This document shows, in pieces, positions 1 through 19,884 of a stretch of 20,000 nucleotides of DNA. The notes beneath the pieces were generated by a model that worked only from the letters and a program-made list of their open reading frames with translations, was not told the origin of the DNA and did not search any database. The stretch lies in the IMG/VR virus record IMGVR_UViG_3300032092_001856; one strand, given 5' to 3'. Source of the stretch: an uncultured virus (IMG/VR IMGVR_UViG_3300032092_001856). Taxonomy: Duplodnaviria; Heunggongvirae; Uroviricota; Caudoviricetes. The position numbers were made by a program, and so were the translations under genes. The first letter of the stretch is position 1, and every line of letters starts with the position of its first letter.

Positions 1-570
1 ATAATATTCATTCCATTGTTCTTTAGAATAGTTTAGGTATTTGTTATTGCCTTTGGTAAAATTGTCGTATAAGAACTGTAGTTGAACATTTACATTTTTA
101 TGTTTAAGAATGTTATAACATTCGTGTTGTTTTGCCCAGTTTTCAGGAGTCACTGCAACATAGACTGTAGAGTTTATATGCTTGTTAACAGCGTTCACAA
201 CATTTAAAAAATGATCAAAGTCTTCTGTAGCATGATAGGTAAGAGATAGATCATACAGGTTAGGAGCCATGTGTGTCCACTGCTCTATACTGGCTTGGCC
301 GTTAGATATTAATTTAAACTTAATTCTAGAATCTTTGTTAGATAGAATAACGTATTGTAAGGCTAGACTAAGTGTAGGTTCGCCACCATTGACATCTATT
401 CTAACATTAGAGAACGCCTGACTTTGATCAACTAAGTGAGCAAATGCCAGGCTGAGTTTGTCATGGTCCGGAAATAAGTTATTACCTGCTTTTAATTCCC
501 AACTGCAGTAGGAACAATCTAAGTTACAACTATTGCCAAGACTCCATTCTATTTGTAGTGTATCCGTCAC
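1..570 (-). CDS. Radical SAM protein (runs off window start)
   Basis: Hand translation from GTG at 570 (GTGA overlap with the HNH stop) is open to base 1. It reads MTDTLQIEWSLGNSCNLDCSYC... with CxxxCxxC and GGEPT motifs. Not in the ORF track. Confidence 0.9.
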   Translation of the reverse strand, partial: MTDTLQIEWSLGNSCNLDCSYCSWELKAGNNLFPDHDKLSLAFAHLVDQSQAFSNVRIDVNGGEPTLSLALQYVILSNKDSRIKFKLISNGQASIEQWTHMAPNLYDLSLTYHATEDFDHFLNVVNAVNKHINSTVYVAVTPENWAKQHECYNILKHKNVNVQLQFLYDNFTKGNNKYLNYSKEQWNEYY

Positions 571-2851: not shown

Positions 2852-3682
2852 TTAGGCTTCAAGGTCGATCCATTCGTATACGTTAAGCCACTTGCGTTTG
2901 CCTATTGTAGCTTTTAAGTGTTTAAGATCTGCACAGGTGCGTTGTCTAAATCGTGGTTTTTCGCTATCGGGCATGGGAATTGTACGTATTTCTACACCTT
3001 CTTGTTCTGCAATAGCTTCTGCAATATCTAGAAATGAATGCGATAGTCCAGAGCCTACATTCCATATGCCACTGCCCACAACAGTTTTCATAAAGTCTAA
3101 CTGTAGCTGACAGATATCTCCAACCCAAGTCCAATCTCTAAACACATGTTCTGCGTTGTCCCATACTTCAATGTAGCCATCTTTCTTGGCCTGCTGGCGC
3201 CATTTGTAGATAGCGTTAGCACGTCGGCCTCTTAGGTGCATCCACTTGCCGTAGACGTTATGGTATCTAAAACCCTGCACCATAATGTGCTGTTCTTGTT
3301 GAAAGACCCACCGATCAAATAGATACTTGCTCCATGCGTAGGCTGTTTGTGGATAGCAAGGTGCATACTCACTAGTGTCTTTAGTATTGCCGTAGACGCT
3401 GGATGAACTGGCATACTGTAAGTGTACACTGTGTTTGTTACATTCATTAAATAGACGCTGACTGAACTCTAGATTTTGTTGTAGTACTTTGTCTACATCC
3501 GTTTCGGTCATGTCTGCAATAGCACCTAGATGTATGACCCAGTTATAGGTTCGAACATCCGGAAACTCGTTAGGATTCCAGTCCCACCCATCTACTTGCC
3601 AGTCAGGTTGATGGTTTAAAAACGCCATCATGTTCTTGCCAATGAATCCTTCTGAGCCTGTTATTAACACTTTCATAAACAC
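2852..3682 (-). CDS. hldD: ADP-L-glycero-D-manno-heptose 6-epimerase-like NAD-dependent epimerase
   Basis: ITGSEGFIG Rossmann motif, HLGA, YASSSSVYG, YAWSK (YxxxK), FRYHNVYG, RD..V.D, GIWNVGSG. Confidence 0.85.
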   Translation of the reverse strand: MFMKVLITGSEGFIGKNMMAFLNHQPDWQVDGWDWNPNEFPDVRTYNWVIHLGAIADMTETDVDKVLQQNLEFSQRLFNECNKHSVHLQYASSSSVYGNTKDTSEYAPCYPQTAYAWSKYLFDRWVFQQEQHIMVQGFRYHNVYGKWMHLRGRRANAIYKWRQQAKKDGYIEVWDNAEHVFRDWTWVGDICQLQLDFMKTVVGSGIWNVGSGLSHSFLDIAEAIAEQEGVEIRTIPMPDSEKPRFRQRTCADLKHLKATIGKRKWLNVYEWIDLEA

Positions 3683-3710: not shown

Positions 3711-4181
3711 TTAGCTAAAATAAGTTTTTAGCATTCCTTGATAGAAGCTGTCAAGTTCTTCTCGATTTGACATATCGCTTTTAAATTGATTTGCTTTTCG
3801 ACTAACAACTACGTAATTAGACAGCTCATCTTTGCCGCCATTACTCCTAGCAAGACGATGATCTAATGTAGGTTGATAGAAGCCTTCATCATTGTTTACA
3901 CTAGGGTTGAACACTCGGTTAAGTCCTCGGCCATAATCTAACGGAGTTCCGAATACTGGACATACATCAGGACAAACTTTAGCTAGGTCAATTTTGTCAC
4001 AAGGCCAATCTACTCCATAGGCCCAAATTAGTTTAAGAAATCTAGTTTGATTTTTACTAGATTTAAATTTCTCAAACAACAACTCAGATCCGTAAGTAGC
4101 TTGATCATAGTATGGATGAAACACTCTCGAAGAAAGGGCAGTGTGCCCTTCCTCCGTAAGCATGATTAGCTTATTCGGCAT
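3711..4181 (-). CDS. HNH-like nuclease
   Basis: CPVFG...PTLDHRLARSNGG...NYVVVSRKANQFKSD resembles the H-N-N beta-beta-alpha-Me core. Likely start is ATG 4181 (MPNK), overlapping the upstream stop. Confidence 0.7.
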   Translation of the reverse strand: MPNKLIMLTEEGHTALSSRVFHPYYDQATYGSELLFEKFKSSKNQTRFLKLIWAYGVDWPCDKIDLAKVCPDVCPVFGTPLDYGRGLNRVFNPSVNNDEGFYQPTLDHRLARSNGGKDELSNYVVVSRKANQFKSDMSNREELDSFYQGMLKTYFS

Positions 4182-5694
4182 TGTCAAACTCATCCATTGC
4201 CATAGATAAGTTGTCTTCTTCGTCATCATCTACAGATACTAATGTAGCAAAGTTAGAAGCAACCACAGACTCATTAATTGCACTAGGTTTAAATGTACTG
4301 AAGTTCTTAACGCACTCAGTTGAAGTATAAGGCATATCCATTTCGAACAACTGACCGCCACTGCTGGCAACAGGTTCTAATTTAAGATTAAATCCTTTCT
4401 TACGACCAGGTTGTGAACGAATCCATGCTTCATGATTTTCAATTAATGTTTTAATAGCAGCCGCAATCATCAATCCGCGATTGCCTGTGTTAGTATAACG
4501 ATGGTCTTTCCATTGTGTATACTTGCCTTTTTCCTTTTGAGGGAACTGTACTTTTAACTGTGCATTAACTTCTGGCCACACACGTTGTGAACTGGCCCAC
4601 TTCTCTGCAAGGATCTCTGCAATGGCAACCATAGTTGCATCTGTTCTTGCTTTAGAAGCTTGGCTACTAAGCAATTCGATTAGACCCCAGACTGGTGCGT
4701 GATCAACACTGCCACCGGGCCATGCTTGGCGTACAATCTTTAGAGCCTTTTCAAACACTTCACGGTTCTTGTACTCGTTCTTACAGTAAGTTTTAAAATG
4801 CTTTTGGAACTGACTGGTAAGATTACTTTCTCCAGGTCCTGGCTCTGCGGCATTTGGAACAAGGGTTACATCGCAATTAGTTAAAATCTTATCTAAGTAA
4901 TAGCTAGGCTCGTCTTCTTTCTTTAAAGGAAGACCTGCTGATAACATTTCTTTACCTCGATTAACACGATTCTTATGAATGTCGTAATCGGTAATAGGCA
5001 GTACATCGCCGTTACATGCAATGAACTGATTAAAGTCAATATAGCTGAGTTCTTTAAGCGAGAAGCCTACAGGAGGAGTCATAACACCGTGGAACACTAA
5101 CGCCACGGTACCGTGATTACCATCATTGCCGTAGACTTTGTTTTCTAGACTAGAGAATCGACCTTTTGCACCAAATACTAGACTAGAGTCAAAGTTGCAT
5201 AACAGTTTAAAGATACGATCCAATGCAATCTCTCGTTGTGCTTTCATGTTTAACTTTAAGAAGCGAACATGTACAGGGATACCGCTCATGACAGCTTCGT
5301 CAAGATTAAAGGCGCCAAGTTGTAATCCATACAAAACATTCTTACCTGTTTCTGGATCAATAATTTTTTGAAATGCTCGCAATACTTGTGTAAAGGCTGT
5401 AATAAAATCAACAGCACCCATGTGCTCAAGAATCAATTTACCTTTGTTTACGTGCAGGGCAGGAATCTTAGCACGTTTAATAATGTCCATTTTACGGTCA
5501 TAGTCTTCTTGGGGAAGTTGGCTAACTGGAATTCGAAACTCCTTCGGGCCAAAGATAAATGCAAGGTCTTCACCAAATGCATCTGTAATTTCTTCTGGAA
5601 AACCGTATTCAATACTAGAACGCCAAGTGTTAATAACCTGTTGTGCAGTTGTGCCAAGACTAGCTGTTGTAGCCTGTGAAGGGTTAGTTGTCAT
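4171..5694 (-). CDS. 507-aa protein with ParB/Srx-like (DGQH-type) domain
   Basis: QREI..DRI.KL..NFD...YGNDGNHG resembles the QR...FD...DGQH signature of ParB-like families; AAAGG RBS upstream; acidic C-tail. Confidence 0.55.
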   Translation of the reverse strand: MTTNPSQATTASLGTTAQQVINTWRSSIEYGFPEEITDAFGEDLAFIFGPKEFRIPVSQLPQEDYDRKMDIIKRAKIPALHVNKGKLILEHMGAVDFITAFTQVLRAFQKIIDPETGKNVLYGLQLGAFNLDEAVMSGIPVHVRFLKLNMKAQREIALDRIFKLLCNFDSSLVFGAKGRFSSLENKVYGNDGNHGTVALVFHGVMTPPVGFSLKELSYIDFNQFIACNGDVLPITDYDIHKNRVNRGKEMLSAGLPLKKEDEPSYYLDKILTNCDVTLVPNAAEPGPGESNLTSQFQKHFKTYCKNEYKNREVFEKALKIVRQAWPGGSVDHAPVWGLIELLSSQASKARTDATMVAIAEILAEKWASSQRVWPEVNAQLKVQFPQKEKGKYTQWKDHRYTNTGNRGLMIAAAIKTLIENHEAWIRSQPGRKKGFNLKLEPVASSGGQLFEMDMPYTSTECVKNFSTFKPSAINESVVASNFATLVSVDDDEEDNLSMAMDEFDNAE

Positions 5695-10082: not shown

Positions 10083-10315
10083 ACGGAACACCCTCAAGCT
10101 CTAGCCCAGGCATATCAGGCTTTATTGAAATATTCGACGGTCGATTGAATAAGATGAAGTTGCACCTTAAAGAAGAATTGACTAAGGCCAAACACGATAG
10201 AGACCGTAAAGCAATAAGCAGGATTATTGCTGATGCTAGGAAGCTAAACAAGACACTGAAAGAAATGCGTAATGCCAATACCAAACTGTGTCCACATTGC
10301 GGAGAAAAATTATGA
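10079..10315 (+). CDS. Hypothetical helical protein with C-terminal CPHCG
   Basis: ORF coupled at both ends; ends LCPHCGEKL. Confidence 0.7.
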   Translation: MNGTPSSSSPGISGFIEIFDGRLNKMKLHLKEELTKAKHDRDRKAISRIIADARKLNKTLKEMRNANTKLCPHCGEKL

Positions 10316-13713: not shown

Positions 13714-14075
13714 CATTTGAACTAACGTGGCTTGATCTAGGCCTGATTGTGGTATTGGCCTATGCGTGGGGCCGTTATGCACAGTGGCGTATCAACATGC
13801 ACAATCTTCTGAACAATCCCCAAAGAATTTCTGACATACTTGCCAAATATGCAGAAGTCACTGCTGTTGAACAGACCCCAAAAGATGTAGAAATAGAACT
13901 ACGTGTAGAATGGGTAGCAGATCAATGCTACATATACCGCAAGGATACCAATGAGTTTATGGCACAGGGCATGGACATTACCCAAGCGATCAATGCCATT
14001 GACTCCCGTGTTCATCAAGGTGCATTTGTAGTGCCCAAAGAAATGGCTACAAAACCACAAGAAAATCAACCATAA
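13710..14075 (+). CDS. Membrane-anchored hypothetical protein
   Basis: N-terminal hydrophobic segment; Y.Y.KDT.EFMAQG motif. Confidence 0.7.
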   Translation: MTFELTWLDLGLIVVLAYAWGRYAQWRINMHNLLNNPQRISDILAKYAEVTAVEQTPKDVEIELRVEWVADQCYIYRKDTNEFMAQGMDITQAINAIDSRVHQGAFVVPKEMATKPQENQP

Positions 14076-15764: not shown

Positions 15765-15914
15765 ATGTACGCAATTATTAACGTTAATACTAAAACTATT
15801 AACTATTATACAACCGAAAATGCCGCTTCAGAAGCGTGTCGCGCTTATAATGTATTACCGGGCCATAAAGTTTATATTATAGACTTTACATTATCATTAA
15901 TCGAACAATTATAA
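15765..15914 (+). CDS. Small hypothetical protein (49 aa)
   Basis: MYAIINVNTKTINYYTTENAASEACRAYNVLPGHKVYIIDFTLSLIEQL*; AAGGA RBS downstream of a promoter. Confidence 0.7.
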   Translation: MYAIINVNTKTINYYTTENAASEACRAYNVLPGHKVYIIDFTLSLIEQL

Positions 15915-15925
15915 AAAGGATTATC

Positions 15926-16075
15926 ATGTCAGAAACTATTACTACAAAAGATAAACTTACTAGTTTAATGTTGCAAATGCAAGAGATTATCATGGAGGAT
16001 TATGAAGATAATGAAGATATACAAGATGCATTTAATGCATTAGCTTGTGCATTTGATTATTATATAGAAGATTAA
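15926..16075 (+). CDS. Acidic mini-protein (49 aa), paralog A
   Basis: MSETITTKDKLTSLMLQMQEIIMEDYEDNEDIQDAFNALACAFDYYIED*; AAGGA RBS; paralog at 18789. Confidence 0.85.
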   Translation: MSETITTKDKLTSLMLQMQEIIMEDYEDNEDIQDAFNALACAFDYYIED

Positions 16076-16985: not shown

Positions 16986-17267
16986 ATGCGACAAGATTAC
17001 ACAATGTATATCTACAAAACAGACAAGCGCACAAAGAGCGGCGAGCGTTTGGTTAGTACTACAGTATGGCAAGACCGTACTGCAGAAGCTATGGCTAATG
17101 AAGTGCGCGGTTTGGCCCTGCCTTATCCTGCACGACAAGGCTACCGTTTTGAGTACTTCCCTACAATGAAGACTGTACGCAACTTGATGTCGGGCAAGGA
17201 CATTCAAATCCCACATGACACACCACGTTCATGTGATCCCTCTAGCGAACTGTATTGGACCATGTGA
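16986..17267 (+). CDS. Hypothetical phage protein
   Basis: AAGGAGC RBS; ends V.NLMSG....I..DTP..CDPSSE.YW.M. Confidence 0.8.
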   Translation: MRQDYTMYIYKTDKRTKSGERLVSTTVWQDRTAEAMANEVRGLALPYPARQGYRFEYFPTMKTVRNLMSGKDIQIPHDTPRSCDPSSELYWTM

Positions 17268-17644
17268 TGACTAGATACTACGACGAACTGGCTGTTTACG
17301 AGCGCGATGGCTTTGATATTATTGTAGACAAGAGCTATGAAGACCTGGACCCAAAAGACTGTTTCGATGACGAGTGCTTCAACCTCAAAGAGATGTACGC
17401 AGACATTGAGTGCGGGAAACTTGACTGGTTCATGCTCCGTGTCCGAGTTATGGTTGAGAACATCGAACTCAGCTCGGAGTTCCTGGGCGGATGCTTATAC
17501 AGTGACGCCAAAGAAGTCCTTACTGACGGGACTGCCGAGGATCTCATCGACATGGCTTTGACAGAGGCTAAGAAGGATGTCTACAGACTATACAAGAAGT
17601 TCCAGGATCTTAGCTGGCACCTAGATGCAGGCCATGTAGCCTAA
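17267..17644 (+). CDS. Acidic hypothetical phage protein
   Basis: TGATG coupling at 17267; EL.SE.LGGCLY motif. Confidence 0.8.
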   Translation: MTRYYDELAVYERDGFDIIVDKSYEDLDPKDCFDDECFNLKEMYADIECGKLDWFMLRVRVMVENIELSSEFLGGCLYSDAKEVLTDGTAEDLIDMALTEAKKDVYRLYKKFQDLSWHLDAGHVA

Positions 17645-17651
17645 ATCATGG

Positions 17652-17705
17652 AATAACCCTACTAGCTGTAGGGTTATTGACAGCCTGCCCAAAACGTGCT
17701 ATAAT
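17652..17705 (+). promoter_or_regulatory. Promoter cassette with inverted repeat
   Basis: AATAACCCTAC-TAGCT-GTAGGGTTATT overlapping TTGACA 17677-17682; TATAAT 17700-17705. Confidence 0.85.
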
Positions 17706-17727
17706 ACATTTTTAAATAGGAGCAAAC

Positions 17728-18111
17728 ATGTACGATTTTAGCACACTAACACAAGCGCAAAAAGACGCTATGCAAGCACTTGTAAACAAATACAAAGACG
17801 TAGAGGGCGACTACGAAAGCACAATGCTAGGAGGCATTGTACACGGCTACTGCGACAGCGGCATTTTAACAGATGCATACAGCGTAGAGGACGCAGAGCT
17901 TGTTGCAAAGTACTTTACAGAGGACGCTATAGACAGCGGAACTATAGAGCAATTTAACGACTTTATTGTTGCAATAAGCGGCGGCACAGAGGAACTGCTT
18001 TGCTGTAAAGTTATAGACGAAATGTGCGCTATTATAGACGACGCGGAGTTAGCGGCGGCTTACATAGGCAAGCTAACAGACACGTTAATGCAAGACTGCT
18101 ACACGGATTAA
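17728..18111 (+). CDS. Highly acidic 127-aa protein
   Basis: About 26 Asp/Glu versus 6 Lys and no Arg; AGGAGC RBS. Confidence 0.8.
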   Translation: MYDFSTLTQAQKDAMQALVNKYKDVEGDYESTMLGGIVHGYCDSGILTDAYSVEDAELVAKYFTEDAIDSGTIEQFNDFIVAISGGTEELLCCKVIDEMCAIIDDAELAAAYIGKLTDTLMQDCYTD

Positions 18112-18117
18112 TATTAT

Positions 18118-18354
18118 ATGAGCTATAAACACATAGACGACGCACTGCAATGGACAGGGGCGATTGCTATTATTGCAGGGCATGTGCTTAACGCTGTAGG
18201 CCCTGCAGCCTATCCCTACAACATTGCTGTCTTTGCTGTAGGCACTGTAGCATTTTTAGCGTGGGCCTGCAGAGTGCGCAACTTGCCGCAGGCAGTTGTT
18301 AATGTTGTAGCATTAACCATAGGGCTAGTAGGGTTATACAACGCATACATTTGA
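18118..18354 (+). CDS. Small multi-pass membrane protein
   Basis: Three hydrophobic segments; its stop codon lies within the next TTGACA. Confidence 0.75.
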   Translation: MSYKHIDDALQWTGAIAIIAGHVLNAVGPAAYPYNIAVFAVGTVAFLAWACRVRNLPQAVVNVVALTIGLVGLYNAYI

Positions 18355-18379
18355 CAGTTTGGGCTCCCTGTGCTATAAT
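18351..18379 (+). promoter_or_regulatory. Early-type sigma70 promoter
   Basis: TTGACA-17-TATAAT with TG extension. Confidence 0.85.
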
Positions 18380-18401
18380 ACATTTTTAAGTAGGAGCAAC
18401 T

Positions 18402-18695
18402 ATGCGTAAATTAAGTAACACACATGCCGTAGCAATTAATAAGTTAATGCTACCCCTAATTAGTACATTAGCACATATTGATGACGATAATGACATTAAT
18501 ATGTACAAAATGTATGCGGACGATATTGCACATAATATTGCTGCATTATGTGTGTTTAATAACACATTAGATGCGGAAGTATTACACGATAATATTATGC
18601 GACAAGATACTTGCCCGCGTGAGCATTTTTATACTGTGTTAAAGTATATTGAAGATAATAAGTTAATACCTGCTAATATGTTTACTTGTATGTAA
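18402..18695 (+). CDS. Hypothetical protein
   Basis: AGGAGC RBS after a promoter; QDT.PRE motif. Confidence 0.75.
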   Translation: MRKLSNTHAVAINKLMLPLISTLAHIDDDNDINMYKMYADDIAHNIAALCVFNNTLDAEVLHDNIMRQDTCPREHFYTVLKYIEDNKLIPANMFTCM

Positions 18696-18700
18696 ACAAC

Positions 18701-18766
18701 AAAGACCCTACTAACTGTAGGGCTTTTTATAGCGCACTTGACGTTTTGAGCTAAGTGCGCTATAAT
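18701..18766 (+). promoter_or_regulatory. Terminator-like ACCC-N11-GGGC hairpin plus promoter within a 13-bp inverted repeat
   Basis: CCCTAC/GTAGGG followed by TTTTT; TTGACG 18738-18743, 17 bp, TATAAT 18761-18766; TTATAGCGCACTT/AAGTGCGCTATAA arms. Confidence 0.8.
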
Positions 18767-18788
18767 AAGTTTTTAACAGGAGCAAACA

Positions 18789-18941
18789 ATGCAAGAAGCT
18801 ATTAGCACAAAAGAAAAGTTAGTTAATTTAATGTTGCAAATGCAAGAGATTATTATGCAAGATTATGAAGATAATGAAGATATACAAAATGCATTTAATG
18901 CTTTAGCAAGTGCATATGATTATTATATAGATGAAGAATAA
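18789..18941 (+). CDS. Acidic mini-protein (50 aa), paralog B
   Basis: MQEAISTKEKLVNLMLQMQEIIMQDYEDNEDIQNAFNALASAYDYYIDEE*; 37/49 identical to 15926-16075. Confidence 0.85.
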   Translation: MQEAISTKEKLVNLMLQMQEIIMQDYEDNEDIQNAFNALASAYDYYIDEE

Positions 18942-18959
18942 TATTATATAATAATAAAG

Positions 18960-19010
18960 ACCCTACTAACAATAGGGTCGGTTGACGAGACAGCGAATCG
19001 AGAGTATAAT
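18960..19010 (+). promoter_or_regulatory. Promoter cassette
   Basis: ACCC-N11-GGGT 18960-18978; TTGACG 18982-18987, 17 bp, TATAAT 19005-19010. Confidence 0.85.
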
Positions 19011-19021
19011 AGATACATAGA

Positions 19022-19226
19022 CAGTTAGAAAAGAGCAAAGGTTACCTACACCGTTAGGGCTCTGGGAAGATTGCAATACCGACGGGTGTTGATCTAGTCC
19101 AGGTCATGAAGCCGAACAGCAATGTTCAGAGAAGCGGCGGATATGGTAGGCAGTAATGATGAAGGCAGACGATCTAGCAGACGGTGCTAGCGCCTAGTCC
19201 GGAGTTCCTTTACTCTTTTCTAACTG
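19022..19226 (+). ncRNA. Candidate structured non-coding RNA (~205 nt), family unknown
   Basis: 14-bp perfect closing stem 19022-19035/19213-19226 plus 5 more bp; internal hairpins including a GCAA tetraloop; lies right after a promoter; no RBS-led ORF seen. Confidence 0.7.
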
Positions 19227-19277
19227 GGCATTCAGGTAGCCCTGATGTAAGTCCAATCTAATTTATAGGAGCGAGCT

Positions 19278-19442
19278 ATGAAGAACGAGATTGAACGTTT
19301 GAACTTTGTCATCTGGGCCAAGGACCGTTACCCGGGATTTACTACAGATCCTAAGCAATATGCCAAAGCCAATCGGGCATGGCGGGCTGTGGCTCGTAAA
19401 GACCCTATGATTGACAAGGTTATTAGAACCTGCTATAATTAA
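19278..19442 (+). CDS. Small basic protein (54 aa)
   Basis: AGGAGC RBS; MKNEIERLNFVIWAKDRYPGFTTDPKQYAKANRAWRAVARKDPMIDKVIRTCYN*. Confidence 0.7.
   Translation: MKNEIERLNFVIWAKDRYPGFTTDPKQYAKANRAWRAVARKDPMIDKVIRTCYN
19402..19439 (+). promoter_or_regulatory. Promoter cassette embedded in a coding 3' end
   Basis: ACCC-N11-AGGT; TTGACA 19411-19416, 17 bp, TATAAT 19434-19439. Confidence 0.8.
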
Positions 19443-19471
19443 GACTAAGTTAAACAAAAGGAGCGAACCAA

Positions 19472-19729
19472 ATGTCAAACTACCCTAACATGAGCTACTG
19501 CATGGTTGAGAACACTCTCGGCGCATTAGATCAAGTGATCACTGCCATGCGCGAAGAAGGTCCTATGTTCTTGCGCGAGTTGAACCGCACAGAGCAAAGA
19601 GCTTTCAAAGAGCTGTTCGGCATGTGCGAAGACTTCCTCAGTGCCGCAGAAGAACTAGAGGACGAGTGCGAGAGAGACGGACAGCCCGACGAAGCCCAGG
19701 AGTGGGCAGACTTTGATCCAGACTGCTAA
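19472..19729 (+). CDS. Acidic hypothetical phage protein
   Basis: AAGGAGC RBS; NMSYC..ENT..AL and C-terminal DGQPDEAQEWADFDPDC. Confidence 0.8.
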   Translation: MSNYPNMSYCMVENTLGALDQVITAMREEGPMFLRELNRTEQRAFKELFGMCEDFLSAAEELEDECERDGQPDEAQEWADFDPDC

Positions 19730-19739
19730 GGAGAACACA

Positions 19740-19883
19740 ATGCAAGCATGGGACGTTATACGTAATGGTAGGGTCATAGACACTGTATTCTATGATAGGG
19801 ACTGTGAGCTGTGGTATGTGCGCAAAGGGCTCATTGAGCACGATGGCTACCCGGTTGACATTGTAGTCCAAAAGGCAGTATAA
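19740..19883 (+). CDS. Small hypothetical protein (47 aa)
   Basis: AAGGAG RBS; MQAWDVIRNGRVIDTVFYDRDCELWYVRKGLIEHDGYPVDIVVQKAV*. Confidence 0.75.
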   Translation: MQAWDVIRNGRVIDTVFYDRDCELWYVRKGLIEHDGYPVDIVVQKAV

Positions 19884-19884
19884 T
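19855..19884 (+). promoter_or_regulatory. sigma70 promoter embedded in a coding 3' end
   Basis: TTGACA 19855-19860, 18 bp, TATAAT 19879-19884. Confidence 0.75.

Follow-up and report, generated by a model that had tools for sequence, protein, structure and literature searches.

The transfer RNA (tRNA) cluster of phage T4 contains two small RNAs, rnaC (species 1, 139 nt) and rnaD (species 2, 119 nt), according to the annotation of GenBank AF158101. The present analysis deals with another phage RNA gene, located at positions 19022-19226 on the plus strand of a 20,000-nt stretch of DNA, hereafter the window, which comes from an uncultured virus of the Caudoviricetes (IMG/VR record IMGVR_UViG_3300032092_001856). 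This segment is almost certainly a real structured non-coding RNA gene that belongs to a new, uncatalogued family. A first-pass annotation of the letters alone had proposed a functional, expressed, structured RNA of a family that it did not recognise. This core inference is supported by the covariation found among 75 listed relatives, by the lack of any matching family in Rfam 15 and by the presence of part of the locus in 20 metatranscriptome runs, and the observation from which it started is confirmed in part.

The lake-phage RNA resembles rnaC and rnaD in being phage-encoded, non-coding and of unassigned function, and in standing directly beside tRNAs in the same orientation, together with which it would presumably be matured; its arrangement is that of a co-oriented, tRNA-adjacent non-coding unit, as theirs is. 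In contrast to the T4 species, it is longer (about 190-290 nt across the family), it possesses a closing stem of 16-32 bp, here called P1, and it is also found as a stand-alone, promoter-driven early unit. Homology with them is rejected, given that the covariance model of the family (R1), run with its filters off, yields at most 6.4 bits on rnaC and rnaD versus 7.4 bits elsewhere in the same 3-kb T4 stretch. Y RNAs have a length of 80-130 nt, are encoded beside a gene for Ro60 and bear D and T arms like those of tRNAs (PMC4201824). The bacterial Y RNA YrlA, bound by Ro60/Rsr (PMC4201824), is similar to the lake-phage RNA in its long end-pairing stem with a folded module, its occurrence in phages and its links to tRNA biology. 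The lake-phage RNA, on the contrary, measures 205 nt (187-285 nt in relatives), has no Rfam match and is conserved in its helices P2 and P2a instead of the closing stem. A Y RNA was also rejected on the basis of five near-complete carrier genomes, chosen for having the motif (320-353 kb; CheckV 92-100%; one with terminal repeats): the TROVE/Ro60 domain PF05731 is found in none of the five, while a control search finds it in 2 of 14 reference genomes.

Other known classes were discarded on similar grounds. For a signal recognition particle (SRP) RNA, no SRP model matches at E ≤ 10, the loop of hairpin P4 varies, where an SRP RNA would have a fixed GNAR loop, and the SRP54 M domain is found in 0 of the 5 carrier genomes. 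For a retron msr-msd, the reverse transcriptase PF00078 is likewise found in none of the five, and no large open reading frame (ORF) adjoins the RNA in the window. ARAGORN calls neither a tRNA nor a transfer-messenger RNA (tmRNA) gene in the window, and the RF00005 and other tRNA calls in homologous loci fall beside the RNA and never on it. The RNA is not a riboswitch, because its downstream neighbour varies (a 54-aa ORF, an 85-aa ORF, a promoter, or tRNA-Glu, -Asp, -Ser, -Leu or -Ile) and because P1 extends over 16-32 bp. The raiA, ROOL, GOLLD and OLE RNAs are associated with tRNAs and phages. They have in common with the lake-phage RNA a multi-helix covarying fold with an invariant core, a discovery made from sequence alone and an unassigned function; the lake-phage RNA is smaller than these and restricted, as far as searched, to giant freshwater phages. 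All four are in Rfam and none of them matches, so the RNA is not one of them. Words shared with 5S ribosomal RNA, the GTPase-centre RNA of 23S ribosomal RNA, box C/D RNAs, K-turns and the tetraloop receptor are unconserved in the family alignment A3 and have no Rfam match.

None of the 4227 models of Rfam 15 matches the window at its gathering score. With the threshold relaxed to E ≤ 10, the region 18900-19350 has a single match, sR14, which at 19274-19308 falls outside the RNA. Down to E = 10, just the flanking tRNAs and plastid motifs score in 30 homologous loci (20 + 10). Two matches below threshold, each seen in a single locus, touch the RNA at its 5′ edge and disagree with one another: sRNA71, with 27.1 bits against a gathering score of 50, and Plasmid_RNAIII, with 26.2 bits against one of 60. 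A search of the full-text literature found no description of the RNA. The candidates in a 2023 survey of viral structured RNAs are not longer than 151 nt (PMC10690425), and a fragment of the RNA could stand in its alignment supplements.

The gene, its promoter and the parts of its fold as modelled for the family are the following:

18982..19010, plus strand: sigma-70-type promoter with TTGACG (18982-87), a 17-nt spacer and TATAAT (19005-10); 11 of 12 consensus matches
19022-19226, plus strand: whole RNA (205 nt), delimited on either side by an arm of the closing stem (P1)
19022-41, plus strand: P1 5′ arm, CAGUUAGAAAAGAGCAAAGG, which pairs with 19207-26 with a single C/A mismatch at 19036/19212
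19042-50, plus strand: P2 5′ strand, UUACCUACA, which pairs with 19145-56, with a 3-nt bulge at 19150-52
19051-55, plus strand: P2a 5′ strand, CCGUU, whose partner is GGCGG at 19136-40, not 19081-85
19058-105, plus strand: P3 arm, with outer helix 19058-66/19098-105, inner helices 19069-80/19085-94 and apical loop GACG at 19081-84
19105-11, plus strand: junction CAUGAA(G) between P3 and P4, in which AUGAA is (near-)invariant in A3
19112-29, plus strand: P4 hairpin, with pair C19112-G19129, stem GAACA/UGUUC at 19114-18/19123-27 and GNRA loop GCAA at 19119-22
19130-35, 19136-40 and 19146-56, plus strand: junction AGAAGC, P2a 3′ strand GGCGG and, after a 4-nt bulge, P2 3′ strand (GUAG-GCA-GUAA)
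19158-206, plus strand: P5 domain, with P5a 19158-60/19204-06, P5b 19164-66/19192-94, P5c 19174-78/19186-90 and a 7-nt loop, AGACGGU, at 19179-85
19207-26, plus strand: P1 3′ arm, CCUUUACUCUUUUCUAACUG, which pairs with 19022-41
19231-46, plus strand: small hairpin TCAGG-tagc-CCTGA, 3′ of the RNA, outside the family and absent in the relative L003

Model R1 finds a single copy of the RNA in the window, with 154.5 bits and E = 1.5e-41 over 19025-19223. Judging by its sequence, the RNA should be transcribed from its own strong sigma-70-type promoter, which is present as the first-pass annotation had described it. P1 begins 11 nt after TATAAT, and the expected start, at about 19016-19018, would lie 4-6 nt before P1. 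The inverted repeat that forms this stem, CAGTTAGAAAAGAGCAAAGG (19022-41) versus 19207-26, spans 20 nt with 95% complementarity and an intervening segment of 165 nt; the closing stem that had been pointed out is therefore real in the window, and it covaries in relatives. When 19011-19250 is folded as RNA, the minimum free energy (MFE) is -78 kcal/mol, with z = -2.75 versus dinucleotide shuffles, and 2 of 200 shuffles equal it; the minus strand of this stretch also folds as well (z = -5.3). The fold is thus above chance and unremarkable, and the window sequence alone is suggestive and inconclusive. There is no plus-strand ORF of at least 30 aa within 19011-19250, and the G+C content of the RNA is no different from that of its flanks. 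The hairpin at 19231-46 is present as described; no T run follows it and no terminator is called there.

The existence of a family is evident from the relatives. An exact 20-mer scan of IMG/VR matched two contigs, one identical to the window and the other being L003, which is 100% identical from the promoter to 19226 (205 of 205 nt of the RNA) and 82-94% identical in the flanking genes. The identity between the window and L003 stops exactly at 19226, which is the end of the closing stem, and the neighbours differ on both sides. Diverged copies are found in L013, L030/L033 and L037/L038, loci near relatives of the neighbouring 85-aa protein, and the words conserved in them are GGTTACCTA..CCG.TAGG and TAGG..GTAATG. 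Scanning IMG/VR with the 5′ word gave at least 119 loci, many of them on contigs of 280-365 kb; the pool of the window and all these loci holds at least 120 occurrences and at least 76 distinct sequences, and the fractions of the family given here over 74, 75 or 76 are fractions of the matches listed. At E ≤ 0.001, R1 matches 75 of the 76 distinct sequences, with scores of 43-222 bits for the members; the remaining one (L177) is a chance match in coding DNA which fails the model. Two weak 103-nt matches to R1 (17.6 bits, E about 0.001) were also noticed, L227 (G025 65170-65272) and L228 (G017 17219-17321), each in a record that has a full copy as well; a shorter relative and mere noise are both conceivable explanations.

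In blastn and megablast against 50,697 GenBank phage records, neither the window nor the RNA itself nor either of two divergent relatives had a match, and tblastn with a 507-aa protein of the window found none either. The nearest record to the window, G001, ends at window position 15890, short of the RNA. The 5′ word is present in 17 contigs of 185,579 cellular species genomes, and these are taken as chance because none of the 17 matches R1 at E ≤ 1. As far as searched, therefore, the family is phage-only and restricted to uncultured giant phages from freshwater.

The strongest evidence for a functional fold is the pattern of base changes in the family. In A3, 28 diverse members were aligned simply with MAFFT, unfitted to the model; from this alignment RNAalifold alone derives 42 pairs, and compensatory changes are seen at 32 of these. 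The hand-refined model comprises 70 pairs in 11 helices, and as controls every 3′ partner was slid by 1-3 columns. On A3, 88.9% of the cells of the model are paired, compared with 40.8-45.1% in the slid controls; two-sided changes that keep the pairing occur at 44 of the 70 pairs, in 289 cells versus 47-76, and the covariation score is 0.43 versus 0.08-0.12, a value reached by none of 500 shuffles. The alignment of 75 sequences, which is fitted to the model and hence leans towards it, has 92.2% of cells paired (40-47% when slid), two-sided changes at 53 of the 70 pairs and a score of 0.496 (0.05-0.09 when slid). The top ranks of a model-free mutual-information scan over all columns are likewise occupied by pairs of the model. 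Of 1960 cells, 231 are G-U and 48 are A-C, and this excess of G-U indicates that the plus strand is the RNA strand, in agreement with the promoter and with the flanking tRNAs, which share the orientation of the RNA. The fold consists of a long P1 around a near-invariant P2/P2a stalk that leads to a three-way junction with P3 and P4, plus a variable, modular P5. It is kept by natural selection, and both the fold and the core sequence are under strong purifying selection.

The individual helices differ in the way they are supported. In P1, two-sided changes that preserve the pairing are seen at 15 of the 17 modelled pairs (93.6% of cells paired); the sequences of its arms vary among lineages but remain complementary, and its length of 16-32 bp refers to 63 relatives among the matches listed. 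P2, which the first-pass annotation had drawn as TTAC-CTAC/GTAG-GTAA, is backed by the pair 19049/19146, which is C-G in 50 of the 75 relatives, G-C in 20, U-A in 3 and A-U in 2. P2a is a different case: the pair 19054/19137 is U-G in 39, U-A in 20 and C-G in 16, without any unpaired instance, and CCGYU/GRCGG (19136-40) is paired in 125 of 140 cells of A3. These changes are one-sided only, so this helix is consistent with pairing and unproven. The partner initially proposed for CCGTT, GACGG at 19081-85, is complementary in the window and in 105 of 140 A3 cells but unconserved, and about half of the family has a GGCCGC loop there. P3 shows two-sided changes at 14 of 15 pairs. In P4, all five stem pairs and the outer pair change on both sides, which backs the GAACA-GCAA-TGTTC hairpin (19114-27) recognised from the beginning, and the loops found in relatives are GCAA, GUGA, GAAA, GUAA, GCGA and longer inserts. 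Conservation is lowest in P5, of which at least five unrelated versions occur across the family; the apical pairs of this domain are 99% paired, with two-sided changes, and the AGGC/GCCT arm around CTAGC/GCTAG (19163-95) is present as drawn, its 3′ hairpin being backed by relatives.

Three further pairings of the first-pass annotation do not extend to the family. TGATCT/AGGTCA is complementary in the window and unconserved (81 of 168 A3 cells). GCC/GGC is paired in 27 of 81 cells, counted 1-2 bases off, and when the columns are set right, an A faces C or G in many relatives. The proposed pseudoknot between 19058-66 and 19198-206 is paired in 133 of 248 A3 cells (53.6%, against a background of 41-45%) and is unsupported by the family; in addition, L013 has the 3′ sequence of the window with a different 19058-66 strand, which argues against it. 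The two strands form in the window an alternative nested pairing that the MFE structure happens to use. Covariation among the homologs speaks for the fold, at 44 of 70 pairs, and not for the pseudoknot.

It is important to note that the invariance of the 5′ word is partly a matter of construction, as the first scan demanded that word. A second scan was made with the 3′ word alone, CGGA....GTAGG.AGTAATGA, and gave 69 matches, of which 4 are chance occurrences in unrelated DNA. Among the 65 true members, 63 have the exact 5′ word, and the other two have one C-to-U change that keeps a G-U pair. The core sequence is kept far beyond the needs of pairing, which points to specific recognition. A tertiary contact between the loops of P3 and P5, to which the only strong signal outside the model belongs, is plausible from the alignment: G19084-C19182 is G-C in 49 sequences and A-U in 4, 53 of 57 sequences can form C19083-G19183, and in one lineage GMCG/CGKU is replaced by GGCA/AUGC, which would represent two simultaneous compensatory changes. 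The third and fourth candidate pairs of this contact are unconvincing (32 of 57 and 43 of 54 paired), the third showing all four A/C-by-G/U combinations commonly. As a separate observation, the word GACGG or GGCGG occurs three times in the RNA (19081-85, 19136-40 and 19180-84, in the P3 loop, the P2a 3′ strand and the P5 loop), each time complementary to CCGUU at 19051-55, and only the copy at 19136-40 is conserved across the family.

In the phage genomes, the RNA is a single-copy gene often found near tRNAs. Each of the five near-complete carrier genomes holds exactly one copy. A tRNA lies within 400 nt of the RNA in 36 of 74 distinct loci, and where there is a downstream tRNA it is tRNA-Glu (16) or tRNA-Asp (11) in 27 of 33 loci. 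For instance, in G006 the RNA is placed between tRNA-Thr and tRNA-Asp, within an island where 21 tRNAs accompany a permuted tmRNA, with two tandem sigma-70-type promoters upstream and tRNA-Asp beginning 7 nt past P1; in G005 it stands beside tRNA-Glu, among 27 tRNAs and a tmRNA, and in G003 there is no tRNA within 14 kb. The contact can be immediate: the end of the RNA coincides with the start of a tRNA at 607 in L087, a tRNA ends at 282-285 where the RNA starts at 281 in L200, and in L137 the RNA occupies the middle of a tRNA array. Elsewhere, the window included, the RNA stands alone behind a promoter of its own. A TTGACN-16..18-TANNNT element that ends 20-30 nt before the GGTTACC motif is found in 23 of the 75 distinct relatives, as in the window.

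The first-pass annotation had also stated that the RNA occupies a cassette slot that elsewhere holds a protein gene. This is roughly right: the last 2.5 kb of the window contain six near-consensus plus-strand promoters, that of the RNA among them, and in L003 the unit stands between different cassettes. The cassette pattern of 17677-19884 consists of a hairpin, (A)GACCCTAC...GTAGGGTC, followed by a near-consensus TTGACA-17-TATAAT promoter and a small gene, and the same hairpin-plus-promoter units are present upstream of the RNA in G006 (L203 7460-7625). Two small ORFs, 15926-16075 (49 aa) and 18789-18941 (50 aa), are paralogues with 87% identity over 171 nt, the second of them absent from L003. 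In L003 and in a metatranscriptome contig of run X1, 19226 is joined straight to 19472, without the hairpin and the 54-aa ORF, and further strain-level cassette joints omit 18341-18738, 19706-19868 and 19729-19874. The versions located in tRNA operons (L087, L090, L100 and many type-B loci) carry, after the promoter and about 60-20 nt upstream of P1, a conserved GTTCTTTAAAAA-like word with a small hairpin (e.g., GGTAACCCGCAAGGGTTGC); the word is absent from the version in the window. The permuted tmRNAs of the carriers are two-piece (L203 12822-13311 and L205 11049-11527), are found beside 21 and 27 tRNAs and encode the tags ANVNKTVTVSGKNIKFSARSAKEALAV and ANDSQFALAA. The latter resembles proteobacterial tags and is possibly a hint at the host.

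Regarding the function of the RNA, the explanation that we favour as a whole, with confidence only slightly above even, is that of a stable trans-acting RNA which is excised from a longer transcript and whose near-invariant core binds a protein. RNase III cuts stems in Escherichia coli ribosomal RNA precursors and at sites of T7 early mRNA. P1 is comparable to such stems, being a duplex of at least two helical turns formed from sequences that flank a stable RNA in a polycistronic untranslated transcript, and a similar cleavage would take place here: RNase III of the host would cut P1 and free the RNA from its primary transcript. No RNase III gene is found in the five carrier genomes (0 of 5), so the host enzyme would be required. 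Where the RNA abuts tRNAs, RNase P and the 3′-end cuts of the tRNA-processing enzymes would release it instead. The excised core would then accumulate as a stable species and offer in trans to a host or phage protein the surface formed by P2, P2a and the junction (GGUUACCUAC.CCGYUAGG, CAUGAA, GRCGGA and GUAGG..GUAAUGA), serving that protein as a scaffold, sponge or decoy. The protein-binding, trans-acting mechanism taken specifically is a tentative proposal, to which we assign clearly less than even probability.

Metatranscriptomes contribute to this picture. Twenty runs from 19 freshwater, river and lake studies contain part of window positions 18700-19500, and 19 of the 20 contain 0.20-0.45 of the sampled words, the RNA being 0.26 of the query. 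The contigs of four runs were placed on the window. In run X2, a 161-nt contig covers 19041-19201 with a depth of 135.6, compared with 3.6-4.0 in the flanking contigs, and one contig has a sequencing adapter joined at 19041, which is a hint of processing; run X12 has a single contig over 18986-19201, and run X1 one over 19041-19226, where the joint from 19226 to 19472 is the L003-type arrangement. This is taken as evidence that the RNA is present in RNA pools, with a hint of abundance. Several points weigh against the favoured explanation. These data are assemblies only, in which contig depth cannot rank genes, and RNA libraries may contain DNA; co-occurring strains that share the core would inflate its depth; and strains diverge at 19041, 19201 and 19226, just where contigs end, so that neither these ends nor the uncovered flanks can fix the transcript ends. 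The RNA is also accessory: of 30 records in which the neighbouring 85-aa gene family is represented, only 4 contain it, and none of the five near-complete ones does. On energy alone, the model is disfavoured too: the window sequence in the family structure has -48.4 kcal/mol (-54.1 when refolded with the structure enforced), versus an MFE of -68.6 with other pairings, yet a family structure above the MFE is usual for multi-junction RNAs. Finally, the frequent first place behind promoters (23 of the 75, in tandem in G006) fits a leader acting in cis equally well.

Such a leader, which we regard as unlikely, could be an antiterminator acting on RNA polymerase, a 5′ stabiliser or a processing platform for the tRNA or early operon behind it. 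The put RNA of phage HK022 is a processive antiterminator that acts on RNA polymerase. Besides the position behind promoters and the arrangement of G006, with tRNA-Asp 7 nt behind the RNA, this reading agrees with the lack of a terminator between the RNA and ORF 19278-19442 in the window and with the ribosome-binding site and ATG directly after the RNA in L003. However, what lies downstream is inconstant (tRNAs, various small ORFs or at once a promoter, as in L013, L037 and L038), some copies trail a tRNA without an intervening promoter (L200), the L137 copy is in the middle of an array, and a closing stem of 16-32 bp is unable to switch as P1 of a riboswitch does; the far greater depth of the core relative to the downstream sequence in run X2 points weakly in the same direction. 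Quite improbable, in our view, is a ribozyme in which the invariant junction core would be the catalytic centre, either self-cleaving, and so freeing itself or the tRNAs, or acting on another RNA. A near-invariant core amid freely covarying peripheral helices and GNRA loops, a possible P3-P5 loop-loop contact, typical of compact catalytic RNAs, and the RNA-processing contexts of the gene are what could be expected from it; no ribozyme family of Rfam 15 matches, though, no conserved cleavage-site signature was identified, and the metatranscriptome contig 19041-19201 is unbroken through the core. Somewhat broader is the idea that the family represents a new class of compact RNA with an activity of its own (a ribozyme, or an effector directed to RNA polymerase or the ribosome), which giant freshwater phages would add to their tool-kit of tRNAs and tmRNA for the takeover of gene expression in the host and whose active site would be the junction core with the P3-P5 contact; this we consider rather doubtful.

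An anti-defence decoy is to be weighed alongside the ribozyme and is about as improbable. By mimicking an RNA target of the host or the phage, for example that of tRNA-directed nucleases, the RNA would titrate a defence protein. Its presence within the tRNA arrays of phages with 21-27 tRNAs and a tmRNA, its accessory character and the dimensions of P5c, whose 5-bp stem and 7-nt loop are those of an anticodon arm, agree with this possibility. A uridine at position 33 is near-universal in tRNAs. The loop AGACGKU has a G at that position; moreover, neither ARAGORN nor the Rfam tRNA model calls the RNA, P5 is its least conserved part and is swapped for unrelated modules in other members, and no defence system is linked to it. 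It is scarcely credible that the unit acts at the DNA level, be it as a miniature inverted-repeat transposon, as a recombination site or as an origin, or that its inverted repeat arose by chance. The 20-bp terminal inverted repeat around a 165-nt core, the different neighbours of the unit in related strains and the folding of the minus strand (z = -5.3) would suit this reading. Against this, the unit is single-copy in all five genomes and in the window, no target-site duplication is seen at 19021/19227, the internal helices covary, the arms differ by lineage yet remain complementary, and the preponderance of G-U over A-C cells (231 versus 48) is explicable only by an RNA of the plus strand. 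The single copy and the strand-asymmetric covariation indicate that it is not a DNA transposon.

Whatever its mechanism, the RNA defines a sizeable, expressed and uncatalogued family with a complex conserved fold and an unassigned function. Few RNAs of at least 200 nt combine an invariant core with many covarying helices, and the large structured RNAs of known function are mostly ribozymes, ribonucleoprotein scaffolds or sensors. The single copy per genome in a clade of lake phages of 320-350 kb, the proximity to tRNAs and tmRNA and the presence in many freshwater metatranscriptomes suggest that it is probably active in the reprogramming of hosts by the phages. The covariance model, the secondary structure and the boundaries make it possible to prepare the RNA synthetically for probing, imaging and use as a bait, with no need to grow the phage first. 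The RNA is also relevant to the "stable RNAs" in the tRNA clusters of T4 and T5, which still lack an explanation.

Some other features of the window were noticed apart from the RNA. On the minus strand, a leftward gene block contains two HNH-endonuclease-like ORFs (567-1079 and 3711-4229), whose neighbours are a radical-SAM protein (1-570), a baseplate-hub/lysozyme protein (1687-2571) and a nucleotide-sugar epimerase (2852-3682). G001, otherwise 99-100% identical to the window, is without about 133 nt at 10167-10299, and in place of the roughly 108 nt of the window at 13792-13899 it carries a differing sequence of only about 19 nt.

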